A stretch of DNA of 64,000 nt from the NCBI GenBank assembly GCA_019058315.1, contig JAHPZH010000007.1:1-64000 (forward strand). The letters are read 5' to 3'. Source of the stretch: Candidatus Helarchaeota archaeon (lineage in GTDB: Archaea > Asgardarchaeota > Lokiarchaeia > Helarchaeales > RDOG01). Shown in pieces: positions 16,234 to 42,220 of this stretch (the first letter of the stretch is position 1; the number at the start of each line of letters is the position of its first letter). A program made the translations under genes and the position numbers. The notes below the pieces were generated by a model. That model made no database searches, was not told the DNA's origin, and saw only the letters and a list, made by a program, of their open reading frames with translations.

Positions 16234-16527
16234 TTATTATCTAAATTCTGCTTAAGTCTAAATATAATTTGTATAATTTAAATAAAAGGTTAAATTGATT
16301 TTACATTTGAAGGATTTTTAAAAATATCAAAAAATTGATAATTCAATTAAAATCTCAGAGAAAAAATATTAATCTGCCCACATTGAAAGTTGTGGGCTCA
16401 AATCTAAATAATCAAATCATTGAAAAGATTTTCGACAAAATTAATCTATTAAATATATTTAAATACAATGATTATAGAAAAATTCTTTGATAGCAACTTA
16501 AATTTTTTAAAAATCTTCTAATAAGGG

Positions 16528-18552
16528 GTGCAAACAATTAGTTCTCTAGATACAAATAATTATCAGAATGATATCATAAAAATTTTAATGCAAGTTTTCA
16601 ATGAAAAAGAAGTTAATAAAAAAATTAAACTCTTAAATAAAACAATTGAATCTATAAATAAGAAGATAGTAAACACCAAAAATAAAGAAAAAAAGGAATT
16701 AGAAGGAATACTTGGAACCATTTACATATATAAAATTGATATTCATGCATATAAAACAAGAAATGAATTATTAAACAAAAATTTTGAAACAGCTGAAAAA
16801 GAATATCAATTTCTCAATACTACTTTTCAAAATTTAAAAAAAATTGAGGTAATAAAAGAAGAAGAGAAATTATATAAAACAATTATATTATTTGAGCAGG
16901 AATTAGAAGCGATTTATAATTATATTTATATAAAGGAACAAGATAGTTCTAAATTATATGCTATAAGAAATGATTTCGTGAATAAACTTCTTGAATTAAT
17001 TAAAGAATATAAAAATCTTAAAGCTATTAAACGAATAATACATTGTTCCAAGATTCTTCAAGAGTATTATATCAATATTGGTGAATTTGATTATGGTTAT
17101 AATTATCTTTTAAATACTGCAGAATATATAATACAACAATCTAAAACAATAAAAGATGAAAAACAAAAAGCTTTATACATTTCTGAATCAGAAGGACTTT
17201 TAGGAAAGGCTAATTTTGATCATGCAAATTATTTACTTAATAAAGGTAACACAATTAAAGGATTGGATTATTTTAAAAAGAGCAAGACTCATTTTAATAA
17301 TGCTACCATTGGGGTAGATGCTATAAATAAAATTATTTATGATAATTTAGTAATTATTTGTGATAAACTAATAAAATTCATATCAGCAATTCTAAATTTT
17401 GAATCTGACCCCGAAAATGTAAAAAAAGAAATAGAGAATTTCTTTAATACGTTTTTAGATTTCGAAAATATGGATTCCCAGCTTCATGAATATATAAAAG
17501 TTGGAAATCTCACATTTAAAAGTATATCTTCAATGTTAGATGCGTTTCAATCAATTGAGCATACCAAGTTCGAATCTGCCGACACCTTCTATAAAAAGGC
17601 TTTAGCTTTTTTAGAACGCGCTGATAATACAGTAATACCAACACAAAAATTAAATTTAAACTATTATAAACATTCATTGGCTATATTATTCAATTTTGAA
17701 AGAGCAAAAAAGCATTTTGAAATAAATAACTTTCCTGAAGCTATAAAAATTTTAGAAAAAATCCCAATTCAAATAAAAGAATTTTTAGATTTTTTTAATT
17801 CACTTCCTTCAACTTCAAAAGAATTATGGAAGGGAATGAAAAATTATTATATAGGTTTAATTCCATTATGTGATGCGATGATAAAACATATTGATGGTTT
17901 TAGTACAATTTTGGAATCAAATGAATTAGCCTTAAAAAATTTTACAATTGCAGATAAAAAATATCAAGAAGCTCTGGAGATTTTTTCGAAAAACATTGAT
18001 TTAAATGATTTGTATCAGGAGAAACTTTCTTTAGACTGCCAAAAATATAAACAACAAGCGTATAATTATAAAAAATTAATTGAGAATAAAATAAAAAAAG
18101 AAGTTATGTTATTTCCAAATATTACTTTTAATTTCATTTCAAATTCAGAATATAAAAAACAATTAATACTTGATTATGAAGAATTAAAAAGATGCTATTA
18201 TTCTAATGCATTTAAGTCAGTATTATTATTATCTGGTAGTATTTTAGAATCCTGTTTAATTGATAATTTAAAACTTGACGAAAAAAATTATTTAGCTAAA
18301 TGTCTTAAATTGTTTCCTCCTAAAAAGCATGAGTCAGCACCCAAAAAAATTGAAAAAATGAAATTATTTCAAATGATAAGAGTAAAGTTTGATGAGTATC
18401 CTTTTCAAGAGAAACTTGCAGATTTAATAAGAGATTTTCGTAACATCATTCACCCAGATGTACAGATTAGGAAAAAGTTAGCATATAAAACAAATAAAAA
18501 TGATGCTAAAGCATTAATTGGGTATTTAATAAATCTTTTAAATAAATTCTAA
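16528..18552 (+). CDS. Alpha-helical (TPR-like) protein with C-terminal HEPN domain
   Basis: EELKRCYYSNAFKSVLLLSGSILE plus RNIIHP (Rx4H-type) at 18439-18456. Confidence 0.7.
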   Translation: MQTISSLDTNNYQNDIIKILMQVFNEKEVNKKIKLLNKTIESINKKIVNTKNKEKKELEGILGTIYIYKIDIHAYKTRNELLNKNFETAEKEYQFLNTTFQNLKKIEVIKEEEKLYKTIILFEQELEAIYNYIYIKEQDSSKLYAIRNDFVNKLLELIKEYKNLKAIKRIIHCSKILQEYYINIGEFDYGYNYLLNTAEYIIQQSKTIKDEKQKALYISESEGLLGKANFDHANYLLNKGNTIKGLDYFKKSKTHFNNATIGVDAINKIIYDNLVIICDKLIKFISAILNFESDPENVKKEIENFFNTFLDFENMDSQLHEYIKVGNLTFKSISSMLDAFQSIEHTKFESADTFYKKALAFLERADNTVIPTQKLNLNYYKHSLAILFNFERAKKHFEINNFPEAIKILEKIPIQIKEFLDFFNSLPSTSKELWKGMKNYYIGLIPLCDAMIKHIDGFSTILESNELALKNFTIADKKYQEALEIFSKNIDLNDLYQEKLSLDCQKYKQQAYNYKKLIENKIKKEVMLFPNITFNFISNSEYKKQLILDYEELKRCYYSNAFKSVLLLSGSILESCLIDNLKLDEKNYLAKCLKLFPPKKHESAPKKIEKMKLFQMIRVKFDEYPFQEKLADLIRDFRNIIHPDVQIRKKLAYKTNKNDAKALIGYLINLLNKF

Positions 18553-18667: not shown

Positions 18668-19642
18668 TTGAGTTATAGAAATATACCCAAAATAGGTTTA
18701 GATAATCTTCCTAGCATAACCAACGAAACCCGCGATATCCTAATAGAACATGGAATAACTGATGTCTATACACTCTATAATACTCCAGACACAAAGCTAA
18801 TTAATATAGGAATTGACACTCTTTTTGCAAAAAATTTGTTGCAAGAAGCATATGAGATTATGAGTAAGTATATATCTACTTTTGAATTGGATGAAGGATT
18901 AAGAAAAAGAATAGCAAAAAAAGATGAAATGACAACAGGTTGCAGGGATCTTGATGATCTATTTGGTGGAGGATTAGTTACTACACAATTATATGAATTT
19001 TATGGTCCTAATAGAGTAGGAAAAACTAAACTTCTTCATCAATTCATTTGTACGGCAGCATTACCAAAAAAATTTGGCGGGCTAGATTCATCCTCGATAT
19101 ATATTGATGCAGAAGGAAGTTTTGCCCCTGAAAGACTTAAAATAATGACTCCTAGGTTTGGTCTAGATTTTGAACAAATCCTAAAAGGAGTAATTAGATT
19201 TCCCATTCATACAGTTAATGAGTTGATTGAGTGTGTGGAAGAAAAACTTTCTCCTATATTAGAAAATTCGAATGTTCGAGTCATCTTGCTTGATAGTATC
19301 ATTACTAATGCTAGAGATGAATTCACTGGAATTAGAAATTTGCCTATTAGACAAGGAGTTTTAGGAAAAATAGCATCTACTTTAAAAAAAACCGCTGAAT
19401 CTTTTAACGCGGTTGTAATAGTAACAAATCAAATAGTTACTGAGTTTTCAAATGGAAGTATAGCTCATGCAGGTGGGAATGTTTTAGGACATGAGTCACA
19501 ATTTCGAGTTGCAATAAATTATGTGCCAGAAAAGCCAGAAATTAGAGAATTTTTTGCAGAAAAAGGTATAGATTTGCCAGAAGAGAAATGTTATCTTAGA
19601 ATTTATCGAAATGGGTTTCAAGATATAAAAGGAGGAATTTAA
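18668..19642 (+). CDS. RadA paralog (Rad51-family recombinase)
   Basis: N-terminal HhH-like region, TTGCRDLDDLFGGG, Walker A GPNRVGKT, YIDAEGSF, LLDS, VTNQ, GGNVLGH. Confidence 0.9.
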   Translation: MSYRNIPKIGLDNLPSITNETRDILIEHGITDVYTLYNTPDTKLINIGIDTLFAKNLLQEAYEIMSKYISTFELDEGLRKRIAKKDEMTTGCRDLDDLFGGGLVTTQLYEFYGPNRVGKTKLLHQFICTAALPKKFGGLDSSSIYIDAEGSFAPERLKIMTPRFGLDFEQILKGVIRFPIHTVNELIECVEEKLSPILENSNVRVILLDSIITNARDEFTGIRNLPIRQGVLGKIASTLKKTAESFNAVVIVTNQIVTEFSNGSIAHAGGNVLGHESQFRVAINYVPEKPEIREFFAEKGIDLPEEKCYLRIYRNGFQDIKGGI

Positions 19643-19702: not shown

Positions 19703-20905
19703 TTGAAAATAGAAGATATTAAAGATTCATCGGAAAAGGAACTGGTTCAGAAATTTAAAGACCGATTTAAACTTCAAGATACTGATTTTACAATAAATAA
19801 AAAGGGGATTATAACTAAAATAAAATCTGACAATCCAGAAGCTCATTATGAATTAGGTAATAAATTATCAGATAAAGGGTTATATAAAAAGGCAATTTCA
19901 GCATTTAAAGAAGCTATAAAATTAAATCCAAATTATGCAGAAGCTTATAATAATTTAGGTTTTACTTATGATGAAACAAACAACAAACTAGATGCGATAG
20001 TAGAATATAAAAAAGCTATTAAAGCGAATCCCAAATATTCTGATGCTTTTTTTAATCTAGGGCTCGCTTATAAAGATATTGAAGAGTATGATGAAGCAAA
20101 AGAGGCATTGGAAAATTTTATTAAATTTGCAAAAGAAGAGGACACGAAAGATGTAGAACATGCCCATAAACTCATTATTGAGATTGATAAAATAAATATC
20201 TCTAGTGAAAAAGAAAAAAATCGTCGTGAAAGAGCATACTACACCCCTAATGATATAAAAAAAATAAAAAGTCCTGAAAAAATAAAAAAAATACCAAAAA
20301 GAAAAATAACAAGTAGAATGCCAACTTTCCCTGATGTACAAGATTATTCAATATATGAAAAATACTATTCCAAAAAAAAAGAAGATCAGGAACGAGAAAA
20401 AAATCCAGAACATCATTTTAACTTGGGACATGAATGTCTCAATAGAAGAATGTATCACGAAGCAATAAAACATTATAAAAAAGCTATAAATTTGAAACCC
20501 GATTATTTTGATGCTCTTCATGAGTTAGGTCTAGCATACCACGGCGATAGATGGCATAAAAAAGCAATAAATGTGTTTAGAAAAGCGATAAGTAAAAAAC
20601 CGGATAATAGTTTGGTTCATTACCATATTGGTCTAACATTTTCGGAAATGGGAAAATCAAAAGAAGCAATTAAGGAATTTAAATTCGCAATTAAATTGAG
20701 ACCATTTAATCCATTAATATATTTTAGTCTAGGTCTTGAATATGAGCATATTAGGGATTTGAATAATTGTAAGAATGCTTATAGAGAATTTGTTCGATAC
20801 CCAAGCTCTCAATATCGGGATCTAATTGAACATGCATTGGAAGTGTTAAGATTATTATCAAAAAAAGGAGGAATATATAGAGAATATATAGATTTTAAGC
20901 TGTAA
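19703..20905 (+). CDS. TPR protein (two TPR blocks with a basic linker)
   Basis: AYNNLGFTY...YKKAIKANP-type repeats. Confidence 0.88.
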   Translation: MKIEDIKDSSEKELVQKFKDRFKLQDTDFTINKKGIITKIKSDNPEAHYELGNKLSDKGLYKKAISAFKEAIKLNPNYAEAYNNLGFTYDETNNKLDAIVEYKKAIKANPKYSDAFFNLGLAYKDIEEYDEAKEALENFIKFAKEEDTKDVEHAHKLIIEIDKINISSEKEKNRRERAYYTPNDIKKIKSPEKIKKIPKRKITSRMPTFPDVQDYSIYEKYYSKKKEDQEREKNPEHHFNLGHECLNRRMYHEAIKHYKKAINLKPDYFDALHELGLAYHGDRWHKKAINVFRKAISKKPDNSLVHYHIGLTFSEMGKSKEAIKEFKFAIKLRPFNPLIYFSLGLEYEHIRDLNNCKNAYREFVRYPSSQYRDLIEHALEVLRLLSKKGGIYREYIDFKL

Positions 20906-21000
20906 AAAATTTTTTAATTAAATAAGATGATATCATATTCGATCTGAATTTATTCGACTCCAGTAGACGATAATAAATATTATGGGGAACGTGAAATTAA

Positions 21001-30279: not shown

Positions 30280-30372
30280 GTTTCTTATTCCCCAATAACG
30301 ATTCTTAAATAAATTTATTCAATTTTATTTAAAAACTAATATATAATCAATAGAGAAAAATTAATTAAATAC

Positions 30373-30894
30373 TTAATCTGTGAAATATTTTTTAATTAAA
30401 TAAGATGATATATCGTATTCTTGCCCAAAAAAATTATATTTTTCATTTTCACTTTCAAAACTTCGATGTTTGTAAACTTCACTCACAATTTTATTAACAA
30501 AGTCTATGAAGAGTTCAATATCAGAATTAAGTTCCCCATTTTCCTCACGTAATTTTTTAATTTCTTCATTATTTACTCCAAATTTCTTTTTTGATAACTC
30601 ATTTTGTATTTTTAAATTATTTTCCTGTAAATTTTTCACTTTTTTCTTTAAATCCTTAATTTCATTAGTTTTGTCACTTTTATTATTAGTTTCTTTTGGA
30701 GGCATCCACCAAATCCAAGAACCGCGATTTTTAGTTTGTTTTCCTTTGATTTTTCCTTCTATTGCTAATTTATCTAACCTATTTTTAATGATATGACGTG
30801 GTTTATTAAATAATTTTACAATTTCATTTGTTGTATATGGTTTATTTGAATTTAGAAAAAGTAATAAAATATCGTTTAATATTTGATTTGACAT
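30373..30894 (-). CDS. Winged-HTH protein with coiled coil
   Basis: PYTTNEIVKLF...RLDKLAIEGKI...WIWW followed by heptad-like region. Confidence 0.75.
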   Translation of the reverse strand: MSNQILNDILLLFLNSNKPYTTNEIVKLFNKPRHIIKNRLDKLAIEGKIKGKQTKNRGSWIWWMPPKETNNKSDKTNEIKDLKKKVKNLQENNLKIQNELSKKKFGVNNEEIKKLREENGELNSDIELFIDFVNKIVSEVYKHRSFESENEKYNFFGQEYDISSYLIKKYFTD

Positions 30895-30991: not shown

Positions 30992-33900
30992 TCACAAATT
31001 AAAACTTAAAAATGCCTCTATTACGTTATTTTTGATAGAATCTAAATTAAGAGTCTTTTTATTTAATTTTAAATATTTTATATTATCTAAAATTCCATCT
31101 ATAATATTTCTAGCTACCTCTAATTCTACATAAGACATTAATTCTGATATAATTTTCTCCCAAGTATCTTTTTCTTTTTGTTTATCATCAATTGGAAAAT
31201 AAAAAAAGCGAACTAATTCATCTATCAAATATTCCTTTGCATCTTTATCAAAGATATATTCTGGTTCTATATCTGGAGGGTTTTCAAAGAATTTATTTGT
31301 TGTTTCTATCAAAACTTCTATTTGAGACCTCAAATCTAAATAAAAAATATCTTCAAAAAGTATATCGGGATCATAATCTTTAAAATATAATGAAATATTT
31401 CCCGTTTCTTTTTTCAACATATTCTCATTTGCATCTGATTCTTCTGTTTTATAAATCAAAACCTTATTTTCTGGAAAAATACAAAAATCAAAATCTCTTT
31501 CTATGGTTAGTGAGTTTCTCCATGTAATTTGCTCTTCTTTATTAAAATAATCAAGTTTTAGGATTAGAAATGTAATTCCAAATTCATTCTTTTTAAGTTC
31601 ATAACTTTCGAGTTTTGGATGATTAATTATAGGAAGAATAGGTTCCATTTTTTCTTCAAGAGATTCCGCAGGTAATTTTTCTTTTTCTAGGATTTTATTT
31701 AACTGGAGTAATAACCAATCCAAGTTAGTTTGTATTTTAAAAATATTTCCTTTAAAAATTCCCTTTATTTTTTCTTCATTTACCCATGTTTCTATTATCT
31801 GCCTTAATCTTTTAATTTCCATCCAATTAAAAAAATCAGGAATTTCACGTAAAAATAATTCTTTACTTGCCCTTATTTTTCCATTTATCAATAACAATTT
31901 CAATTTTTTTATAAATTCTAAAAAATTTAAAATAATTTTAAAAGTAATGAGATTATTTTCAATCTCAATATCGTACTTTTTTGATTGATACTTAATAAAA
32001 TTCTTAATTTTCTCGCTTTCTACTTCTCTAACGAAATAAGGTATTTTTTTTAAGTTAAATTTCTTTTCTTTTTGTAATTTCAGGATTAAATTCAAATGTA
32101 AATAATGATTTAATGTTCTTTTTATTATTTTTCTTATTTCTTTTTCATCATTACTATTAAAATCTCTAATATTTTGAATTAAAGAAGTAAAAAATTCCTC
32201 AGTCAAATTAGAATTAAAATATTTCAAAATCTCACAATGCAAATCATACCATTTTGCCCTTATTCCTGGTTTGGTATATATTGATTTTTTAAAAATCTCT
32301 ACAACCCTTTTAAGCAACTTTTTTTTAGTTATTGGATGAATCCCCTCTATTAAATCATATCCAATTTTTTCATAATAAGAAATTTTTTTGGATGAATTAT
32401 CTTTATTCCAATTAAATTGGAAAAAATTGTAAGAATAACGTTCCAACATATTTAATAAATCCCTAAGAGAAGAAATCTTTTTACAAATATCCGTATTGAG
32501 AAAATGTAAAAAAAATTCTTCAAAATTCTTAAAATTATCCTCGTAATTATTTTTAAAGAATCTTATCACACTTGGAATTCGCTTATTACCTCTTTGCTCT
32601 TTTTTTACTCTTCCACCAAGATCTTCAAATATCTTTAAATTTATGTTTTTTGAATCTTGGATATAGATATAAAAACTATCTCCATGCCACAGACAAATAT
32701 CAATAGATTGCCCATGTTTGGTATTATTTAAGAGCAAGCTTAAATCTTCCTTTTCAATATCTTTTTTAAACTTAAAGAGAACATATTTTACACCGAATTT
32801 AGTCATTCCTTCTAAATAATATTGTAATTCAGAAGTTTTAGAATCAAAACTCAATTGAGTTTCCCTGATTAAATGGGGATAGCTGATACCTGAAAAATCA
32901 AATTTAGGAAATTTTTTTCGTCTTAAGATGATGTCGCATTTTTCATTAGCATAACCATATAATTTCACATATTTTCCAAAGGATTTTTTTAGAAAAATTT
33001 CTGTATCAAAAACTGGCATGAGTTTATAGGGCTCAAATCTTCTGTTTCTATAAATATTACTATCGTAAACCATTTGTGTTAATATAATTATAGAATTTGT
33101 CTCCCTTGCAATGAATTTTAACATTGTGGTAAAATTTCCTGCAATGCTTGCCCTCTTCCAAGTAGGAGATAGTTCTTCGTTATCTCCATTGATGGGAATA
33201 TTTCTTTGAATCTGAGTAATTAATGAGTTAACTATAATTAATTTGGGATGAAATTTATTCTTAATATCAATTAACCTTTGTAAGATCGAGTCTATATTAT
33301 CATTGTCGGAAAATGGGATGAAATGGACTCTCTTAAGATTTTCAATATTATAATTTTTAAAATTTCTAGAGATATCAGCTAAATTTTTATAAAAAGGGAA
33401 TTTTAAGTTATTTAAACAAACTACACTTTCTGAATTTAACCCATCCTCATGTTGTGCTGCTAACATGAGGTAACAGATTAAATCCATTAACTGTTTTTCT
33501 TCGTTTTTGTGACAAAAAATTAAGTTAAAGGAACCACAATTAAATCCTTCAGCTCGGCTTTTTTTCCAGCCAAATATTTCGATCCTTGTTCCCTTTTGTA
33601 TATTACGACCTAATTCAATTTTACCGTCAGAGATAAGTCTGATTTCATTTTCTTTAGGGATCTTATCAACAACCTCTAACTCTTCCCCTGTCCAATCGAA
33701 CTTTTTCTGAAGTGGAGGGTATATAATAGCCAAATTCATTTTAATTATTTTTTTATTTAATAAAATCTCAGTACCCTCTTTAAATTCCTGAGAAACCTCA
33801 AAAAAGATATGATTTTGTTCAGTTACTAATTTATCAATATCGGTGAATGTAGGAAAACAAGGTTTTGTTTCTGGAATGTGATCTATTGATTTAGAATAAC

Positions 33901-36900
33901 CGCTCTCAACCACATTAAAGTAAGTTTTTTTAAGGGAGAAGTTTTCATGATATTCTTCTTCATAATGGGGTAATAAATCACAAATCTTAATCCTACTCAA
34001 GAATTCAATAAAACTAATATATTGACCCAGTTGTAAAAACTGATAACCGCCATCCACACATTTATTCATGGGATCTAATACAGTTAGAGCAGTTTTATGA
34101 CCCATGCTTTTATTAAAAATGTTGTGAAGGTCAATTTTTTTGGATGTTCGTATAGCTATTTCTTTTGTAGTCCAACAAATGATTTTAATATCTATGTTTT
34201 CTGGATTTCTTCCTAAGTTTTTAATCAAGGTATTTATTTTCCTAATTGGAATATCTTTTTTTAATTCAAATGCTGCATAATTAAATCCATTCCGAGTATT
34301 CCCAAATTCGTAAAAATAGAGTAGCTTCTCAGGATTTTTAAGGAGATTTTCTCTCCGTTTTAAAAATTTTTCCAACTCTTTTGTTTTATTTGGCTTTGAA
34401 TATGCACACACTTCACGGAAAAATTTAGCAAAATCTATATTTTTTATAAATCTGAAGATATTATAAAGATAAAATTCATAAAAATCAAACCAATCATTTA
34501 TATAATTATTTTCATTAATGGTCGCAATCCAATTTTTAAAATTCTTAAGATTTGGTCTACCATATTTATTAAAAAATTCATCTTCATCAACAATTTCGTT
34601 AACATATTGAATTGTTAAATCATAAGCTTCCCTTTCTTTGGAATATAAAAACTCCCCATTATGTTCTTCAAATAGACTTTTTATATTATTTAGGTCATTT
34701 TCAGATTCTATTACTGGGTGATGATCAAACCAGATTAATTTGAAATTAAAGTATCTGTCTTCAAGTTGCTCAAAAAATATTTTAAGGAATTTTTCTCGAC
34801 CTGGTAAGAATGGAATGTCTGCAACATAAATATAATTCATCATATCGTGCTTTAAAGACTTTAAAACTTTATTTTCAAGAACCTTTTCAATATAGTTTAG
34901 ACCATATCTATTTGTTGCTGGAAAGATCGATAATATGTTATTTTTTCCTTGATGTAGAAATGTCAAGTTTACAGCAGACTTAAAACCATCCTTATCAACA
35001 TGAGGAATAATGCAGACATTTATCCAAGGTTCTAACTCAGGAATTCCCTTCTCCTTAGGAGATAAGAAAAAATCTAAGATTGTTAGGGTATCTTGAATCA
35101 TAATATTTCTATAAAATAGATCTTCATCCTCCAACTCAATGTATTGGGGAATATTCCCATTTCCCAAAATAGAGTCAATTATATTTACAATATTAAAAAC
35201 CCATTTTGCTTCTTTTTTTGTTTCAAAGGCACAAAAAGGAATATATTCAATATTATTTTTTGATTTCAAGAATTGAGCAAGATTTTTAGCTTCGAGCTCC
35301 ATAATCTGGAGCATAGATAATTCTTTATTCTTATAATAGAATTTTTTTGAACATACATCTTGGAATAATGTATCTAGTTTTTTCTTTGCCTTACATTTAC
35401 TTGAAACATAAAATAATTCTCTCCCTAATTCGTCCATTCCCCTCCATACGTCTTTTCTAAAAATTCTATTATCTATAAACATTTCAACTAAATAATATCT
35501 TAATGGTGGTCTATAAGCATCCATGAAATCAAAAAGTAACTCCTTATTTTTCTTAGTCATTGCCCCATAAAAGGTCTCATTTCTTTTCCCGCTATTTGCA
35601 CGATAATGCAATATTCCAGGTCCAGGGAAAAATCGATTAAATCCGACTTTACCTAAAGCTTTGCCTGCTTCTTTTTGTAATAAAATATATAGATAATTCA
35701 AGCATGCATTAAACACATCATAAGCCTTTGCACCATAATAAAAAATTGTCTCGGCGTATCTCTGTGCTTGCCGGCCAACAAAGCGAAATTTTGGGGGTAA
35801 AGCCCGTTTGATCACTTCCCAAGCATTTTTTTCTGAATTTCCTTCAGCAGAACGTAATCTATTCATGATATCTATTATTTCTTGTTCATTATGAGGTTCA
35901 TAAGAAGCATTATAAAATAAATATGTTAAAAGCAACCAATCAAGTTGACCATAAAGGAGTTTATCTTGATATTTCTTTATAACCCACGGTTTGTTTAATT
36001 CTGTAATGAATTTCGAGACTAATTTTCTTGTATAAAGCACATTTGACATTATTTTTGCAAAAACCATTTGTCTACCGACTTCCATCAAATCCCCTTTTGC
36101 TCTCCGATCTATTATTTTATTTCTAATCAAACTCTCGGATCTTTCCCTTTTCTCCGCTTCAAGTATTTCTTCTTTGTTATGTTCAATTAATTCTATTCGA
36201 TGTAAGTCAATAAAATTCATTGCTTCTTTACTTATTGTCCCTCCGAATAATTCAATTCTTCCCACCGCATCTATAAAGTAACGTCTTTTATTACCAGATA
36301 TATAAAAACGAAATACTTTATCTTTCGAGTCATAATCAACCCGTAATTCATGTCGCTTTTTCACAATTAGATTGTACGCATAATTTTTAACATTAGCTAT
36401 TAAAAAGCCATTAATTTCTTTGATTTTATTAGTTATTTGTTTATAAATTCCTGTTTTTCCCTCAAACATTCCCCTCTCTCCCATATATACCACTAATTTA
36501 CAATTCTTACAAATTGATGCAACTCCATATATGGGAATTAATAGTGTATTTATTTCACCACATTCAGGGCATTTTGGTTTGTCATCATGAATTTCAAAAC
36601 TTTTAAATTGAATATATTTACGTTCTATTTCTTCAAAATCATCACATATTTTTTGCTTTGGAGAACGTTCTTTTTTCTTAAAATTACATCTATATCTACA
36701 ATTTATTCTCTTTCTTCGATCATGAGGATGTTTTTGCAAGTGTTGGCAATCTTTACATGTTTTTTCTTGAGATTTTTCAAAATATTTCTTTAAAAAATAT
36801 CGATATGGAGGTCTTCCTATTACTTGATATTCTTGAACACAAACAACTCTATCTGAAAGTTTATCTAAGTGTGCTCTAATTTTACGAAGACTAATATCAC

Positions 36901-39292
36901 CATAAAGATTCATATACAACTCTTTTACTGTTAGTCCATTTTTACCAGCTATTTCTAATAGCTTTAATATTTCTTCATCAAGCATTGAAGGAGCTTTATT
37001 TCTCCAATTAATCTTGTGACGCCAAATCCCCGGTTTTTTACCTTTCTTTTCGATTTCTTCTTTTTGGTAACGTCTATAGATCTTATTAAGGGTATGAAAT
37101 ATTGTCTTATTTTCATCAAATACTCTAGTAAAATCAACTTCGTAGTAATTTTGTCCCTTCTCTTTAACAATTTTTTCGACATATTCATGGATTCTGCAAC
37201 CTTCACAGAAGAGATATAATGATGCAGCAAGCCAAATACTGGTTTTTCGATAATTTTCAATATCTCCATCATAAAGTCCTTTTTTATAATTCTCTTTTTC
37301 TTCTTGTTCTAGATCCCAGCGATAATTCTGTAATAAATCTCGAATTTTATCTTTCTTTTCTAGTACATAATCCCTTTGAAGTGCTTTTAAATCTTGAAAC
37401 CTAGGGTCCTCTTTAAGAAGAATCTTTGTTGCAGTATTAGTAAGGATATTGATACAAGAGCTGGGCGAGGGCTTATTATTATATAAAAACAAAAATGAAA
37501 ATTCATCAGCAGTTAAAATATCAACTTGCGATTCAACTGCTGCCTCCCCTATATATGTGAGCCCCATCACCTTTTTACTTGATCTTATATAAATTGTGTT
37601 AAGCAGATCATTGACAATTCTCCTAAGTCTATATCGAACATATCTATGTGTTAATCTTGTAAATTCATCACGCGTTATTTTTTTCCTTATATCTTCTGTT
37701 TCTTTTTTATTAATTTTATATAATTCCAAATTTCTTTCATTTTTTGCCCTTAAAATGAGCTTTTTAATATATTTCTTCCATTTTTTAAAAGATATTTGAT
37801 GATAAAATAACCTTTCAATTGCTAACTTTTCAATATCTTTTAAAGTAATTCTGCTTCTAATCTCATCAAGCTTAAAACCTCTAAAACGAAAATTCTTAGG
37901 TATTTTTTCTGATTTTTGATCTTGCTCTTTTATTTTCTTATCCTTGATTAGAAGAATTTTCTCTTCAAAATCATTTTTCAATAATTTCGAAACAAAAAAT
38001 ATTATATTCCCTTCTTTTTCTCTGGTTCTACCAATCATTTGAGTAAGTTCAACTGAGTTATAAATTTCAGCATCAGTTATTAGTATTGTATGGATGTTCT
38101 TGATATCTACTCCAACTTCCAATACAGGACTGCAAAAAAGGAATCGAATTTTATCATCCTTCATAAATTCGTTAAATTTTCTTTTTCTAATCTCTAAATC
38201 CAACCCTGCATGTATGTAATCAACATGAAAAGCAACTTTTTTTTCATTAATAAATTGCATATATTCTTCAAATTCTCTACCATATTCAGTATCAAGATCT
38301 GAAAATACAGCATTTGCGATATAATTTTTTGGATTAACATATGGAACCTTACCAAAATTTTCCCATACGAACATAGCGAGGGCTTCTGCAATCCTACGGC
38401 TATAGGTGAAAATGAGCATTTTGCCAGAAGTTTTTTTATCATTTTTCACAATATCATATAAAAATTTCTCACAATGTTTCAATGTTCTAAATAGCTTTTC
38501 ATAATATGCCCTAATATTATCAAACTTTAAGCGAGTCTTAATGAACTTTTCAACATCTGAAAATTTGTATTTTTTCAATAACTTTTTTCTTTCCCTCTTC
38601 CATATATGTTTAAAATCACCATATTTCTTTTGAATTATTTCTCCTTTAAAATTTCGTTCATTTGATCTAAAAATAAGTTCACAATTAAATTTTTTAGCCC
38701 AATTTTCTGCTGATTTTCTTTCAAAACTCCCACTTAAAAAACAAAATTGAACATCTTCATGCTCACGCTGAATTTTATATAACATCGTTTCGAGTTTTAA
38801 GCCACGAGATCTTTCTCCTAATTTATGAGCTTCATCAATAATAACCGCTCCAAATATTTTCTTTCCATAGAAATATCTTCTCTTTTGTATCTCAAAAAGG
38901 AATGAGCGAAATGCTTCATATGTTGCGATAATTATTGCATTCCCCATAGCATTTCTTAAATCATCAAGAGCAGGTCTAATTTCTGCTTGTAATTTTAATA
39001 TTTTTATTTCTCTTTGATATTCTCTTTCTAATTCAATAGCTTTTTGATGTAAAAGCATCACTGTCGGAACCAAATATACAGGAATTAAATTTCTGACTAA
39101 AGCCATTGTAGTACAAATTTTTGCAATTTCGGTTTTACCCATACCTGTTGGTGCAACTACAAAAACACTTCGACCTTTAATTACAAATTTATATCCTTTT
39201 TTTTGATATTTATGTAGTTTGCTAAGTAAGAAATTTCTACGCTTCGAACTCTTGTCTGCCTTCTCAATATTTCTAGAAATCGTCTCAAACAT
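30992..39292 (-). CDS. cas1: Multidomain Hel308-like helicase - wHTH/Zn - Cas1 - DHH - inactive RadA fusion protein
   Basis: APTGMGKT, DEAH, QMIGR; Cas1 SAEG, NACLNYLY, GILH, FDFMDAYRP; HVDKDG and DHH; RadA-like IIVNSL...IIILTQMV. Confidence 0.85.
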   Translation of the reverse strand: MFETISRNIEKADKSSKRRNFLLSKLHKYQKKGYKFVIKGRSVFVVAPTGMGKTEIAKICTTMALVRNLIPVYLVPTVMLLHQKAIELEREYQREIKILKLQAEIRPALDDLRNAMGNAIIIATYEAFRSFLFEIQKRRYFYGKKIFGAVIIDEAHKLGERSRGLKLETMLYKIQREHEDVQFCFLSGSFERKSAENWAKKFNCELIFRSNERNFKGEIIQKKYGDFKHIWKRERKKLLKKYKFSDVEKFIKTRLKFDNIRAYYEKLFRTLKHCEKFLYDIVKNDKKTSGKMLIFTYSRRIAEALAMFVWENFGKVPYVNPKNYIANAVFSDLDTEYGREFEEYMQFINEKKVAFHVDYIHAGLDLEIRKRKFNEFMKDDKIRFLFCSPVLEVGVDIKNIHTILITDAEIYNSVELTQMIGRTREKEGNIIFFVSKLLKNDFEEKILLIKDKKIKEQDQKSEKIPKNFRFRGFKLDEIRSRITLKDIEKLAIERLFYHQISFKKWKKYIKKLILRAKNERNLELYKINKKETEDIRKKITRDEFTRLTHRYVRYRLRRIVNDLLNTIYIRSSKKVMGLTYIGEAAVESQVDILTADEFSFLFLYNNKPSPSSCINILTNTATKILLKEDPRFQDLKALQRDYVLEKKDKIRDLLQNYRWDLEQEEKENYKKGLYDGDIENYRKTSIWLAASLYLFCEGCRIHEYVEKIVKEKGQNYYEVDFTRVFDENKTIFHTLNKIYRRYQKEEIEKKGKKPGIWRHKINWRNKAPSMLDEEILKLLEIAGKNGLTVKELYMNLYGDISLRKIRAHLDKLSDRVVCVQEYQVIGRPPYRYFLKKYFEKSQEKTCKDCQHLQKHPHDRRKRINCRYRCNFKKKERSPKQKICDDFEEIERKYIQFKSFEIHDDKPKCPECGEINTLLIPIYGVASICKNCKLVVYMGERGMFEGKTGIYKQITNKIKEINGFLIANVKNYAYNLIVKKRHELRVDYDSKDKVFRFYISGNKRRYFIDAVGRIELFGGTISKEAMNFIDLHRIELIEHNKEEILEAEKRERSESLIRNKIIDRRAKGDLMEVGRQMVFAKIMSNVLYTRKLVSKFITELNKPWVIKKYQDKLLYGQLDWLLLTYLFYNASYEPHNEQEIIDIMNRLRSAEGNSEKNAWEVIKRALPPKFRFVGRQAQRYAETIFYYGAKAYDVFNACLNYLYILLQKEAGKALGKVGFNRFFPGPGILHYRANSGKRNETFYGAMTKKNKELLFDFMDAYRPPLRYYLVEMFIDNRIFRKDVWRGMDELGRELFYVSSKCKAKKKLDTLFQDVCSKKFYYKNKELSMLQIMELEAKNLAQFLKSKNNIEYIPFCAFETKKEAKWVFNIVNIIDSILGNGNIPQYIELEDEDLFYRNIMIQDTLTILDFFLSPKEKGIPELEPWINVCIIPHVDKDGFKSAVNLTFLHQGKNNILSIFPATNRYGLNYIEKVLENKVLKSLKHDMMNYIYVADIPFLPGREKFLKIFFEQLEDRYFNFKLIWFDHHPVIESENDLNNIKSLFEEHNGEFLYSKEREAYDLTIQYVNEIVDEDEFFNKYGRPNLKNFKNWIATINENNYINDWFDFYEFYLYNIFRFIKNIDFAKFFREVCAYSKPNKTKELEKFLKRRENLLKNPEKLLYFYEFGNTRNGFNYAAFELKKDIPIRKINTLIKNLGRNPENIDIKIICWTTKEIAIRTSKKIDLHNIFNKSMGHKTALTVLDPMNKCVDGGYQFLQLGQYISFIEFLSRIKICDLLPHYEEEYHENFSLKKTYFNVVESGYSKSIDHIPETKPCFPTFTDIDKLVTEQNHIFFEVSQEFKEGTEILLNKKIIKMNLAIIYPPLQKKFDWTGEELEVVDKIPKENEIRLISDGKIELGRNIQKGTRIEIFGWKKSRAEGFNCGSFNLIFCHKNEEKQLMDLICYLMLAAQHEDGLNSESVVCLNNLKFPFYKNLADISRNFKNYNIENLKRVHFIPFSDNDNIDSILQRLIDIKNKFHPKLIIVNSLITQIQRNIPINGDNEELSPTWKRASIAGNFTTMLKFIARETNSIIILTQMVYDSNIYRNRRFEPYKLMPVFDTEIFLKKSFGKYVKLYGYANEKCDIILRRKKFPKFDFSGISYPHLIRETQLSFDSKTSELQYYLEGMTKFGVKYVLFKFKKDIEKEDLSLLLNNTKHGQSIDICLWHGDSFYIYIQDSKNINLKIFEDLGGRVKKEQRGNKRIPSVIRFFKNNYEDNFKNFEEFFLHFLNTDICKKISSLRDLLNMLERYSYNFFQFNWNKDNSSKKISYYEKIGYDLIEGIHPITKKKLLKRVVEIFKKSIYTKPGIRAKWYDLHCEILKYFNSNLTEEFFTSLIQNIRDFNSNDEKEIRKIIKRTLNHYLHLNLILKLQKEKKFNLKKIPYFVREVESEKIKNFIKYQSKKYDIEIENNLITFKIILNFLEFIKKLKLLLINGKIRASKELFLREIPDFFNWMEIKRLRQIIETWVNEEKIKGIFKGNIFKIQTNLDWLLLQLNKILEKEKLPAESLEEKMEPILPIINHPKLESYELKKNEFGITFLILKLDYFNKEEQITWRNSLTIERDFDFCIFPENKVLIYKTEESDANENMLKKETGNISLYFKDYDPDILFEDIFYLDLRSQIEVLIETTNKFFENPPDIEPEYIFDKDAKEYLIDELVRFFYFPIDDKQKEKDTWEKIISELMSYVELEVARNIIDGILDNIKYLKLNKKTLNLDSIKNNVIEAFLSFNL

Positions 39293-39594
39293 AATATCAA
39301 ATGAACAGCATCAGTAAAAAATTATAATTTCAAAGAAATCTCTAAAGTGTTTAAAAATTTTTTTAAATTAATTTTTTGAAATTCAAAATTACTAATTTAA
39401 ATTTAAAATTTTAAATAATTTATTAATTTTTGTTAATTCCATTTTTAAATATCATAATTTATTTATAAAGCCGAAGTGCCTAAATATCCGACTATTATCT
39501 ATTAGTCTATACCATTAATGGTAATTAAAGAAAACATATTTTCTAAAATGTAAGTGGAATATAAATAAATTTAAATGAAGTTAAAAATGATAAA

Positions 39595-40620
39595 TCATAG
39601 AAAATTACCAGAATTAAGTTCACTTAATAAAAAATTTTTTTCTATTCCTTTATAATAACCTCTCGTAACAAGGCTACCCTCTAGAAATCCGATTTTCCTT
39701 AAAAAACTTTTTTTATCTTTTTTCCTTACGATTAATAAATGGGTATATTTATCATTGATTAAATAATTGATGTTAAAATGATTATGAATTTCTCCTATTT
39801 CATATAAGAAATCAAGATTTTTTTGAGCCCCAATAAGCCAAAATCTCTTATATTTTTTGGATACAGTTATACCCCCATCATCTGCCCAAAAACATCGAAG
39901 AAACTCTCGTTTAAATTCGGAAGGACCAGCCTTTATCACTTCTGGAACTTGAATATTATTTGATTTACAACTGTAAGATGGTGCATATTTCATTAAATCT
40001 TGAATAGCTAAAATTGAGTTGTAATTAATAGATACGCAATTTTTATGGTTTTCATCAAATATACCATTATTTTCAAGTCCATATACAGTTTTCACATCAT
40101 TGATAAACTGCTGAATTACTTTTGGTGATGAACAGATAAATCTAAAGTAATTATTTCCTTTTCTATCATTGACAGAACCATCAAAAAGCATATGACTAAT
40201 GATTCTTATTTTTTCAATTGTCATTTTCTCTTGTTCCTTTATTGGTTTATATCTACTTTCTTGAAACTCTTTTGACTTCCATTTTTGTTTCATTATACGA
40301 CTAAAATGAATTCGACTTTGTTCTCTTTTAGAGGGGGTTACATTTGCAAGCTTAGCCCCCTTACTACAACCCCAATTTGGGGGGAATACTACAAATTGGA
40401 AGTCATATTTTGATTTACTGATAATTTTCAGACACTCAATAAATAAAGATTCCGGAATTGTAGATATTCCAGATCTATAATTATATAAATTATTCTTTGG
40501 TATATCCATCTTAATTGAAAGTTGCTTAAAAGTAACTTTCTTCCTTAATAAATCAAAGAATTTCTTCAAATCTAGTTTTTCTAATTTAATCCTGTTTTCT
40601 TTTGTATTTCTACCTTTCAT
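39595..40620 (-). CDS. Free-standing two-motif LAGLIDADG endonuclease with N-terminal HTH
   Basis: IISHMLFDGSV and FLRCFWADDGGI helices; N-terminal FKQLSIKMDIPKNNLYNYRSG. Confidence 0.7.
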   Translation of the reverse strand: MKGRNTKENRIKLEKLDLKKFFDLLRKKVTFKQLSIKMDIPKNNLYNYRSGISTIPESLFIECLKIISKSKYDFQFVVFPPNWGCSKGAKLANVTPSKREQSRIHFSRIMKQKWKSKEFQESRYKPIKEQEKMTIEKIRIISHMLFDGSVNDRKGNNYFRFICSSPKVIQQFINDVKTVYGLENNGIFDENHKNCVSINYNSILAIQDLMKYAPSYSCKSNNIQVPEVIKAGPSEFKREFLRCFWADDGGITVSKKYKRFWLIGAQKNLDFLYEIGEIHNHFNINYLINDKYTHLLIVRKKDKKSFLRKIGFLEGSLVTRGYYKGIEKNFLLSELNSGNFL

Positions 40621-40667: not shown

Positions 40668-41969
40668 TCATTTTAGAAAATTCGATAAAAACGTTTGATT
40701 CTTAAAAAAGAGGCGGTAATCAAATTTTTGCATGTTTTGTAATGTTTTTTTAGTTTTTCTCCCATATTTTTTTATAATATAGTTTTGCATCTCATCTGGG
40801 TCTACTGTATAAGGGACTTCAATCAAAATTATCCCATTTTCTTTACATATTTTTCTTTTTATTTGGTCTCTTTTTTGTTGTTTTTTGAATCTTTTTTCAG
40901 TGGAGTGGAAAAATGAGTTATATTCATAATGCTGTAATCCATTATATTCAAATGCTAGTTTTAATTCTCGATTATAGCCATCTAGATGCATTTTTTCAAT
41001 TTTATAATCTCCAAATTCAATTTGATATTTTTCCAAAATTGTTTTATCAAGAAAAACATCATTTAAGGTAGTCGTAGGAAATTCTTTTTCAAATATTGCT
41101 TCAAAATAGCACCGACAAATTCGTTCATTAAATCCTTTCATACAATTAGGACACCAATGCCCCCTTAGAACATGTGTAGGTCTTGCTTCCCAGATATTTT
41201 TACATGCTCCGCATTGCCATTTATATTTCATATTAACATAAATATATTTTTTAGATGTGGATATTTTAGATAAAAATTTCCCAGGATAACCAGTCTTTTC
41301 CAAACCTATATCATATGCTATTTTATGCATCTCTGTTATAGAATGTCTTGCTTTTCCAGAACATCTTGGACACCAAGAATCCCCTCTTCGGATATGATCT
41401 GCAGTTGTTTCCCAAATATAGCCGCATTTCCCACATTGCCACTCATATTTTGTGTCTGTATTAATGTATTCTTTTGATAAGAATTTTCCTGGCTTCCCCG
41501 TGTTTTTTATTCCCATATCATGGGCAGCCTTATACATGTCATCTATACTAAGTTGAAGATTTTTCGCACAATTTGGACACCAAGCCCCCCTTCTCACATG
41601 ATCTGCCCTTGATTCCCAAATATAATTACATTTTCCGCATTGCCATTCATATTTTGTGTTAACATTAATGTATTTTTTTGATAAGAATTTTCCTGGCTTT
41701 CCCGTCTTCTTTAGACCTACTTCATGGGCAGTTTTATGCATTTCATCTATAGTGAGCCTACGATTCCCAGCACAATTTGGACACCAGCCCCCTTGCTTTA
41801 CTGAATCTGCCGTAACTTTCCATATATAGTTGCATTTTCCGCATTGCCACTTGTATTTTGTTTTAATATCAATATATTTTTTTGATAAGAACTTTCCTGG
41901 CTTCCCTGTCTTTTTTATTCCTATATCATGAGCTGTTTTATGCATATTTTTTATATCATATTTTTTCAT
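40668..41969 (-). CDS. Four Zn-ribbon repeats plus C-terminal PD-(D/E)xK/Vsr-like nuclease
   Basis: 4x WQCGxC..W...WCPxC; LDGYNRELKLAFEYNGLQHY; ATG 41969 with SD aggtg preferred over TTG 41987. Confidence 0.8.
   Translation of the reverse strand: MKKYDIKNMHKTAHDIGIKKTGKPGKFLSKKYIDIKTKYKWQCGKCNYIWKVTADSVKQGGWCPNCAGNRRLTIDEMHKTAHEVGLKKTGKPGKFLSKKYINVNTKYEWQCGKCNYIWESRADHVRRGAWCPNCAKNLQLSIDDMYKAAHDMGIKNTGKPGKFLSKEYINTDTKYEWQCGKCGYIWETTADHIRRGDSWCPRCSGKARHSITEMHKIAYDIGLEKTGYPGKFLSKISTSKKYIYVNMKYKWQCGACKNIWEARPTHVLRGHWCPNCMKGFNERICRCYFEAIFEKEFPTTTLNDVFLDKTILEKYQIEFGDYKIEKMHLDGYNRELKLAFEYNGLQHYEYNSFFHSTEKRFKKQQKRDQIKRKICKENGIILIEVPYTVDPDEMQNYIIKKYGRKTKKTLQNMQKFDYRLFFKNQTFLSNFLK
41140..41960 (-). 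repeat. ~204-bp coding tandem repeat, 4 copies
   Basis: gataagaa(c/t)tttcctggctt anchor at 41884, 41680 and 41476, with a diverged copy at 41269. Confidence 0.85.
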
Positions 41970-42015
41970 ATAAACACCTAATTTCAAGATTTTTTTACTT
42001 AATAATATTATAGAA

Positions 42016-42062
42016 TGCGCAGAATATATGTTTTGTTATATATAAAGAAGAGTTTTTGCGCA
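42016..42062 (-). promoter_or_regulatory. TATA box flanked by two TGCGCA palindromes
   Basis: TGCGCA at 42016 and 42057 with TATATATAAA at 42037-42046; identical spacing to 1369-1415. Confidence 0.6.
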
Positions 42063-42220
42063 AATTTAATTTAAGGGTTATTAATTTTTCCATTAATTTT
42101 CATTATCTATTTATAGAATTCCATTAGGTAATTCTGGGTCACTTAAAAGGAGTAATAACAAAATAGATAATATTCAATTAATTATTAAAAAAAAAGTAAT
42201 GGAAAATAAACAGTGAAGAT

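Follow-up and report, generated by a model that had tools for sequence, protein, structure and literature searches.

A Cas1 domain inside a helicase polyprotein of a Helarchaeota genome without cas2 or CRISPR array

The polyprotein gene and its locus

The window analysed here is a stretch of 64 kb, contig C7 in our survey of the whole 5.79 Mb genome (12 contigs, 94% complete). The host is an Asgard archaeon with an actin match at E 4e-134 and its nearest homologues are named Ca. Helarchaeota, among them the radical SAM protein NVM03150.1 of a MAG that is probably GCA_013375355.1, which is at least 90% identical to the protein in the window; one relative that has a bacterial name in NCBI yet is placed in the same order was treated as a labelling problem. 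The interval 35233-36380, which the first-pass annotation had described as a catalytically intact Cas1 domain, encodes residues 971-1354 of a 2766-aa open reading frame on the minus strand (30992-39292). The domain does appear intact, but the description omitted the main fact about it, namely that it does not stand alone and is part of a polyprotein (P0001) with the order helicase, wHTH, Zn, Cas1, DHH and RadA-like, as defined by the ORF call, Pfam and family profiles. A putative promoter of this gene lies at 39461-39491 (minus strand), where a 21-nt motif in common with the C6 paralogue (18/21) is followed by a TATA-like box.

The N-terminal part of the polyprotein (aa 25-440; 37973-39220, minus strand) is a Hel308/Ski2/Pol-theta-like SF2 helicase core with Pfam matches to DEAD (2.9e-19) and Helicase_C (1.9e-13) and PDB matches to Hel308 and Pol theta. 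Its Walker A, DEAH, motif III and motif VI are intact and the same motifs are kept in the paralogues. The following helical segment (aa 470-760; 37013-37885, minus strand) is conserved across the helicase-Cas1 family, has no Pfam match and, from its position, is probably the Hel308-type winged-helix/ratchet part. A winged helix with a weak HTH_20 match and then Cys clusters (C846, C908, C928) occupy 36488-36985 (minus strand); the cysteines are conserved in all five paralogues of the genome and the module is a candidate for DNA-end or target recognition. C-terminal to Cas1 we found a RecJ-type nuclease domain (DHH/DHHA1; 34013-35035, minus strand) that retains motifs I-III; its family profile matches host DHH proteins at 1e-11, and the homologue P0041 gives a weak Pfam DHH match. 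This domain is followed by a RadA/RecA-like domain with an insert of about 100 aa (32933-33910, minus strand; family profile to host RadA paralogues at 1e-12), where Walker A is lost and the Walker B Asp is changed to Asn, and which is predicted from these substitutions to be ATPase-dead. The C-terminal tail has repeated DHHA1-like units.

The Cas1 domain itself (aa 975-1365; 35198-36370, minus strand) was delimited with both subdomains by Pfam, homologue conservation, profile alignment, an AF2 model and structural matches. Pfam Cas_Cas1 (PF01867) gave 38.8 bits against a cut-off of 22.3 (E 8e-10), and the CRISPR cas1 profile TIGR00287 gave 62 bits, under its cut-off of 71.7. The AF2 model, with 31 homologues found by phmmer as alignment input, had a mean pLDDT of 91.7 and showed a beta subdomain at the N-terminus and a helical one at the C-terminus, confirming the two subdomains read earlier from the sequence. 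Its top structural match was Cas1 of A. fulgidus (AfCas1, 4n06) with a Z of 26.0 and an rmsd of 2.7 over 260 residues, and the M. mazei casposase (6opm) matched with a Z of 25.0 (helical subdomain) and an rmsd of 2.5 over 248 residues. Foldseek on the same model gave E 8e-13, and a search of the ESM Atlas returned no usable match. The motifs quoted in the first-pass annotation and its residues E1150 (codon 35843-35845), H1229 (35606-35608), D1255 and D1258 were all located where it had placed them; the four residues lie within 35519-35845 (minus strand) and each is at least 90% conserved among the 31 homologues. E1150/H1229/D1258 fall on E/H/E of AfCas1 in the profile alignment, which we take to be the metal-binding residues of that protein, in line with the proposed resemblance to the triad of characterised Cas1. 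The superposition at 2.5-2.7 Å suggests that the triad may be co-located in the modelled structure. Comparison of the C11a and C11b copies showed Cas1 to be under purifying selection (dN 0.12, dS 0.71, dN/dS about 0.17). The domain is real, has the whole fold and looks active.

Downstream of the polyprotein gene lie a 173-aa wHTH/coiled-coil gene (30373-30894, minus strand) that is 55% identical to a gene at the C11 helicase-Cas1 elements, then HEAT and TPR genes, and then a RadA paralogue facing the Cas1 gene (18668-19642, plus strand; Pfam Rad51 3.7e-43), which is possibly the far end of the same island. GC content is 0.265-0.276 at 16.5-20.9 kb and 30.4-42.0 kb versus 0.30-0.31 outside, and an island spanning about 16.3-42.1 kb is plausible. 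No TIR or TSD was found between the candidate ends of the window copy, where the sole inverted match (p=0.04) was rejected as AT-rich low complexity, and no empty site was obtained from the relatives searched, which are too distant for synteny. A direct repeat of about 50-64 nt, present at 20877-20941 and 30350-30420 and nowhere else in the genome, corresponds to the end (3') of the wHTH gene; between its two copies lie 9.4 kb with HEAT-repeat genes of 2543 and 557 aa. This recalls the duplicated gene 3' ends at L092 and at the C6 remnant, both described below. Beside the RadA paralogue, the low-GC stretch 16528-18552 encodes a helical protein of 674 aa for which Pfam, NCBIfam and PADLOC gave no match. 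A hairpin at 16370-16398 (minus strand), nearly unique in the genome and with a folding z of -2.7, points out of the low-GC block and presumably resembles an IS605/TnpB right-end remnant. No tRNA or Rfam RNA was detected within the 64-kb window.

The first-pass annotation reported no cas2, array or PolB in the 64 kb and concluded that the domain fitted neither a CRISPR adaptation module nor a canonical casposon. Both statements hold, and the conclusion is now true of the whole assembled genome: cas2 is absent from the 94% complete assembly and a genome-wide array scan returned only codon-periodic tandem repeats, hence there is no cognate array or cas2 elsewhere in the assembly. Two PolB genes are present, on contigs C6 and C2, with none near the window. 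Contig C7 carries no tnpB, and the genome's single RAMP match is at C1:403810, near the C1 paralogue, with no Cas7/Cas5-like RAMP genes at the window locus. No relative was found in viral contigs.

Sister copies, partner genes and mobility

All five Cas1 matches of the genome are helicase-Cas1 fusions at unrelated sites. The four paralogues are 29-43% identical to the window copy, and there are in addition two truncated tails, at C6:230146 and C2:383449. About 30 members of the family are known, and the long homologues all carry helicase, wHTH/Zn and Cas1. The Cas1 domain is thus less of a mystery than the first-pass annotation implied, being part of a fusion family whose usual contexts (TnpB, ARAMP) are published Asgard Cas1 systems. 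The distribution is patchy: two of the 160 other genomes of the class have close homologues (E<1e-50), the polyprotein is absent from the one relative genome of the same family, and a few other Asgard families also have homologues, one genome (G307) with five copies.

TnpB is head-to-head with helicase-Cas1 at C6, C11a, C11b, G003, G006 (two loci) and L030, and RAMP genes adjoin it at L026, L027, L029, L031, L090, C1 and five loci of G307. Genes for RadA or OB-fold proteins are likewise found next to other helicase-Cas1 copies. TnpB-linked and RAMP-linked copies are intermingled on the family tree, where the window protein has P0002 as its sister, the TnpB-linked C6 copy as the next relative (100/99) and the C11 pair further out (82/98, not starred). 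Because the window copy nests among TnpB-linked copies, this placement suggests that TnpB, its guide partner, was probably lost at the window locus.

The domain composition and surroundings of other copies vary. The C1 paralogue is without DHH and RadA domains and ends in leucine-rich repeats, and a separate DHH-RadA fusion gene faces it (C1:380162-382117). A different Asgard gene order, at L099-L101, is TnpB, a gene of about 540 aa, a Cas1 fusion of 1274-1392 aa and then a separate helicase gene. At L093-L098 (G307, G308) each helicase-Cas1 and RAMP unit is followed by a conserved non-coding sequence of about 130 nt with short variable stretches, present twice at L097; located downstream of RAMP genes, it is a candidate ARAMP guide RNA. 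An internally deleted TnpB/helicase-Cas1 remnant is found at C2:383449-384600 and C8:1-87, and the end of C11 and the start of C2 appear to join inside elements.

Four Cas1-linked TnpB ends terminate at GTAGTTCA, each with unrelated flanking DNA. The end of the C11a element interrupts an acyl-CoA synthetase gene some 90 codons from its start. The final 25 or so codons of this gene recur 39.9 kb off, past a pair of OB-fold and RadA genes, and its central part is absent. The event looks like a replacement and not an insertion with duplication. Among the candidate ends of the five G307 copies no TIR or TSD was found. Since the paralogues, at the identities given above, are old, there is no sign that the window copy moved recently.

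A nuclease cassette behind paired TGCGCA boxes

Upstream of the polyprotein gene and on the same strand are an HTH and double-motif LAGLIDADG nuclease (39595-40620; Pfam LAGLIDADG_3) and a Zn-ribbon repeat protein with a C-terminal PD-(D/E)xK-like segment (40668-41987; Pfam DUF4379/CapR, weak DUF2726). A TATA-containing promoter between two TGCGCA boxes 41 nt apart (42004-42075, minus strand) is also present upstream of the C6 tnpB, the C6 remnant and the cassette at L092. Eight boxed TGCGCA pairs occur in the genome, compared to about 0.2 expected from 213 single sites. Pairs 40-41 nt apart were recorded at 42016 and 1369 of the window, at C6:304396, C6:232334, C10:11210 and C11:793485, and at L092:8590, and the genes behind boxed promoters are mobile nucleases (TnpB, LAGLIDADG, Zn-ribbon nuclease) and a MoxR-like ATPase. 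A role of the motif as an element end was rejected; as it occurs within the C6 element and also precedes unrelated genes, we read it as a regulated promoter, and the boxed promoters are possibly a regulon under a repressor. Near position 1600 of the window there is a small ORF of ribbon-helix-helix-like type.

In the related Helarchaeota strain GCA_013375355.1 (L092) the same promoter and gene pair adjoins a peptidase gene at its 3' end; there the LAGLIDADG gene is 84% identical to that of the window and is preceded by a Zn-ribbon homologue of 35% identity. A copy of about 80 nt of the peptidase 3' end follows, the flanking DNA is 81-89% identical to the window genome and no Cas1 is present within 10 kb either side. 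The site of this cassette is empty in the window genome (C11:677180-677204). The insertion (L092:8438-12693, 4.25 kb) comprises two nuclease genes, a 75-aa ORF whose last part repeats the peptidase C-terminus, and an M20 peptidase, and forms with the C11 site a filled/empty pair for a free-standing homing-nuclease cassette. The Cas1-free copy and the empty site indicate that the cassette moves independently; the Cas1-free copy led us to reject LAGLIDADG as an obligate Cas1 partner, and the association at the window locus may be due to chance or secondary. At C6:230140-232400 the TGCGCA promoter drives another LAGLIDADG gene, which is joined, in a different frame, to the final 290 nt of a helicase-Cas1 gene with 85% identity to the window copy.

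Proposed role and relation to known Cas1 systems

We favour, with a probability of roughly 60%, a reading in which the Cas1 domain serves as integrase, carrying out strand transfer for an Asgard-specific, PolB-free mobile element whose core gene is the helicase-Cas1 polyprotein. Its observed basis is the architecture, the intact motifs, the multi-copy patchy spread, the swapping of partners and the sister element that interrupts a host gene; the ends and current mobility of the window copy itself we infer. In such an element the Hel308-type helicase and the RecJ-like DHH nuclease would produce a single-stranded 3' donor end, the wHTH/Zn module would bind this end or the target, and Cas1 would join the end to the chromosome, after which RadA/RPA-type proteins might finish the reaction by recombination and not by casposon-style PolB fill-in. 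A single-stranded donor end would fit the preference of the casposase for ssDNA (PMC9939771). A swappable neighbour module, either TnpB with its RNA or ARAMP genes, could provide targeting or retention in most copies; at the window locus this module would have been lost, with a mobile homing-nuclease cassette lying upstream instead.

A large, selected, nuclease-rich polyprotein beside RAMP or other defence-like cargo would also fit a role in defence. The window copy could be derived from an element and now be immobilised or domesticated, serving in place in host DNA repair or in an array-free defence that attacks or captures invading DNA with helicase, Cas1 and DHH. Its ends were not found, its frame and motifs are intact in spite of the lost guide partner, TPR and HEAT-repeat genes lie next to it, a defensive role is predicted for ARAMP systems in PMC8730458, and the helicase part weakly matches defence helicase profiles in PADLOC. 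The PADLOC matches are, however, to generic helicase and Cas1, and a settled host function sits poorly with the absence of the gene from most relatives, including the sole genome of the same family, with multiple copies and remnants, and with the interruption of a host gene by a sister copy; we consider domestication somewhat unlikely. Rather doubtful is a functional replacement of TnpB by the LAGLIDADG/Zn-ribbon cassette, whose protein-guided homing nucleases would maintain or propagate the element by cleaving the empty allele, much as TnpB acts as a programmable homing endonuclease (bioRxiv 10.1101/2023.11.20.567912). One TGCGCA-boxed promoter type drives both the C6 tnpB and the nuclease pair of the window, and the C6 remnant joins this promoter and a LAGLIDADG gene to a helicase-Cas1 tail; but the cassette of GCA_013375355.1 is Cas1-free at a site that is empty in the window genome, the two LAGLIDADG genes of the window genome are only 31% alike over 109 aa, and no other Cas1-LAGLIDADG pair occurs among about 20 family loci. 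That the protein works in trans as the integrase of CRISPR adaptation, or that it is a canonical casposase, is highly improbable, even though AfCas1 and a casposase are the nearest structures and an array could be missing from an assembly that is 94% complete in 12 contigs. The low score against the CRISPR cas1 profile, the lack of cas2 and array in the assembly and the lack of TIR or TSD among candidate ends speak against it, and although the C6 paralogue adjoins a PolB gene, this gene is outside the TnpB end, is one of two in the genome and has no counterpart at other helicase-Cas1 family loci.

Returning to the mobile-element reading, we may speculate further, in a form we regard as unlikely, that the polyproteins form a new class of Cas1 transposase, independent of PolB, TIRs and TSD. 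Such a transposase would make its own single-stranded donor by means of helicase and RecJ-like nuclease, replace its target with the help of RadA, and freely swap TnpB, ARAMP and protein-guided homing nucleases, the third of these at the window locus. The Cas1 homologues of Asgard archaea are the most diverse known, and we found no bench test of any of them in the literature searched. A single chain of helicase, Cas1 and nuclease that has TnpB or Cas7-like genes as partners is similar to the intermediates predicted between transposons and CRISPR adaptation, and several copies with different partners in one genome offer a system for testing Cas1 transposition without PolB. To this the window copy itself adds little beyond the observation that the core gene stays intact after loss of the guide partner.

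Among known systems the closest are the aCas1-TnpB loci of Asgard archaea (Cas1H-Asgard-1/-2; Altae-Tran et al. 2023, PMC10691335), in which aCas1 is described as the likely transposase. Likenesses are the Asgard host, a diverged Cas1 without array or cas2, the proposed transposase role, and the nearest paralogues of the window copy, which are head-to-head with TnpB of two unrelated groups. Unlike these loci the window copy has no tnpB, the motif GTTCACTCA given in that paper is absent from the TnpB ends of this genome, and its main text describes no helicase-DHH-RadA fusion. ARAMP with aCas1 is a second published Asgard context of Cas1, according to PMC8730458, which cites Makarova 2020; the same protein family lies beside RAMP gene sets without an array at seven or more loci, whereas the window locus has no RAMP genes. 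Casposons (M. mazei 6OPM; PMC9939771) are alike in Cas1 fold (Z 25), intact triad, lack of cas2, patchy spread and probable mobility. They differ in that the polyprotein is without PolB, has its wHTH N-terminal to Cas1 and carries fused helicase, DHH and RadA-like domains, with no TIR or TSD among its candidate ends. CRISPR Cas1, represented by A. fulgidus 4N06, is the best structural match (Z 26) with an aligned triad; yet the fusion partners are different from those of Cas4-Cas1 and RT-Cas1, the genome has no Cas2 or array and the domain is under the TIGR00287 cut-off. The family is of a kind already described computationally, with a predicted role as mobile-element transposase, and the window copy, without the usual partners, is a further member of it.
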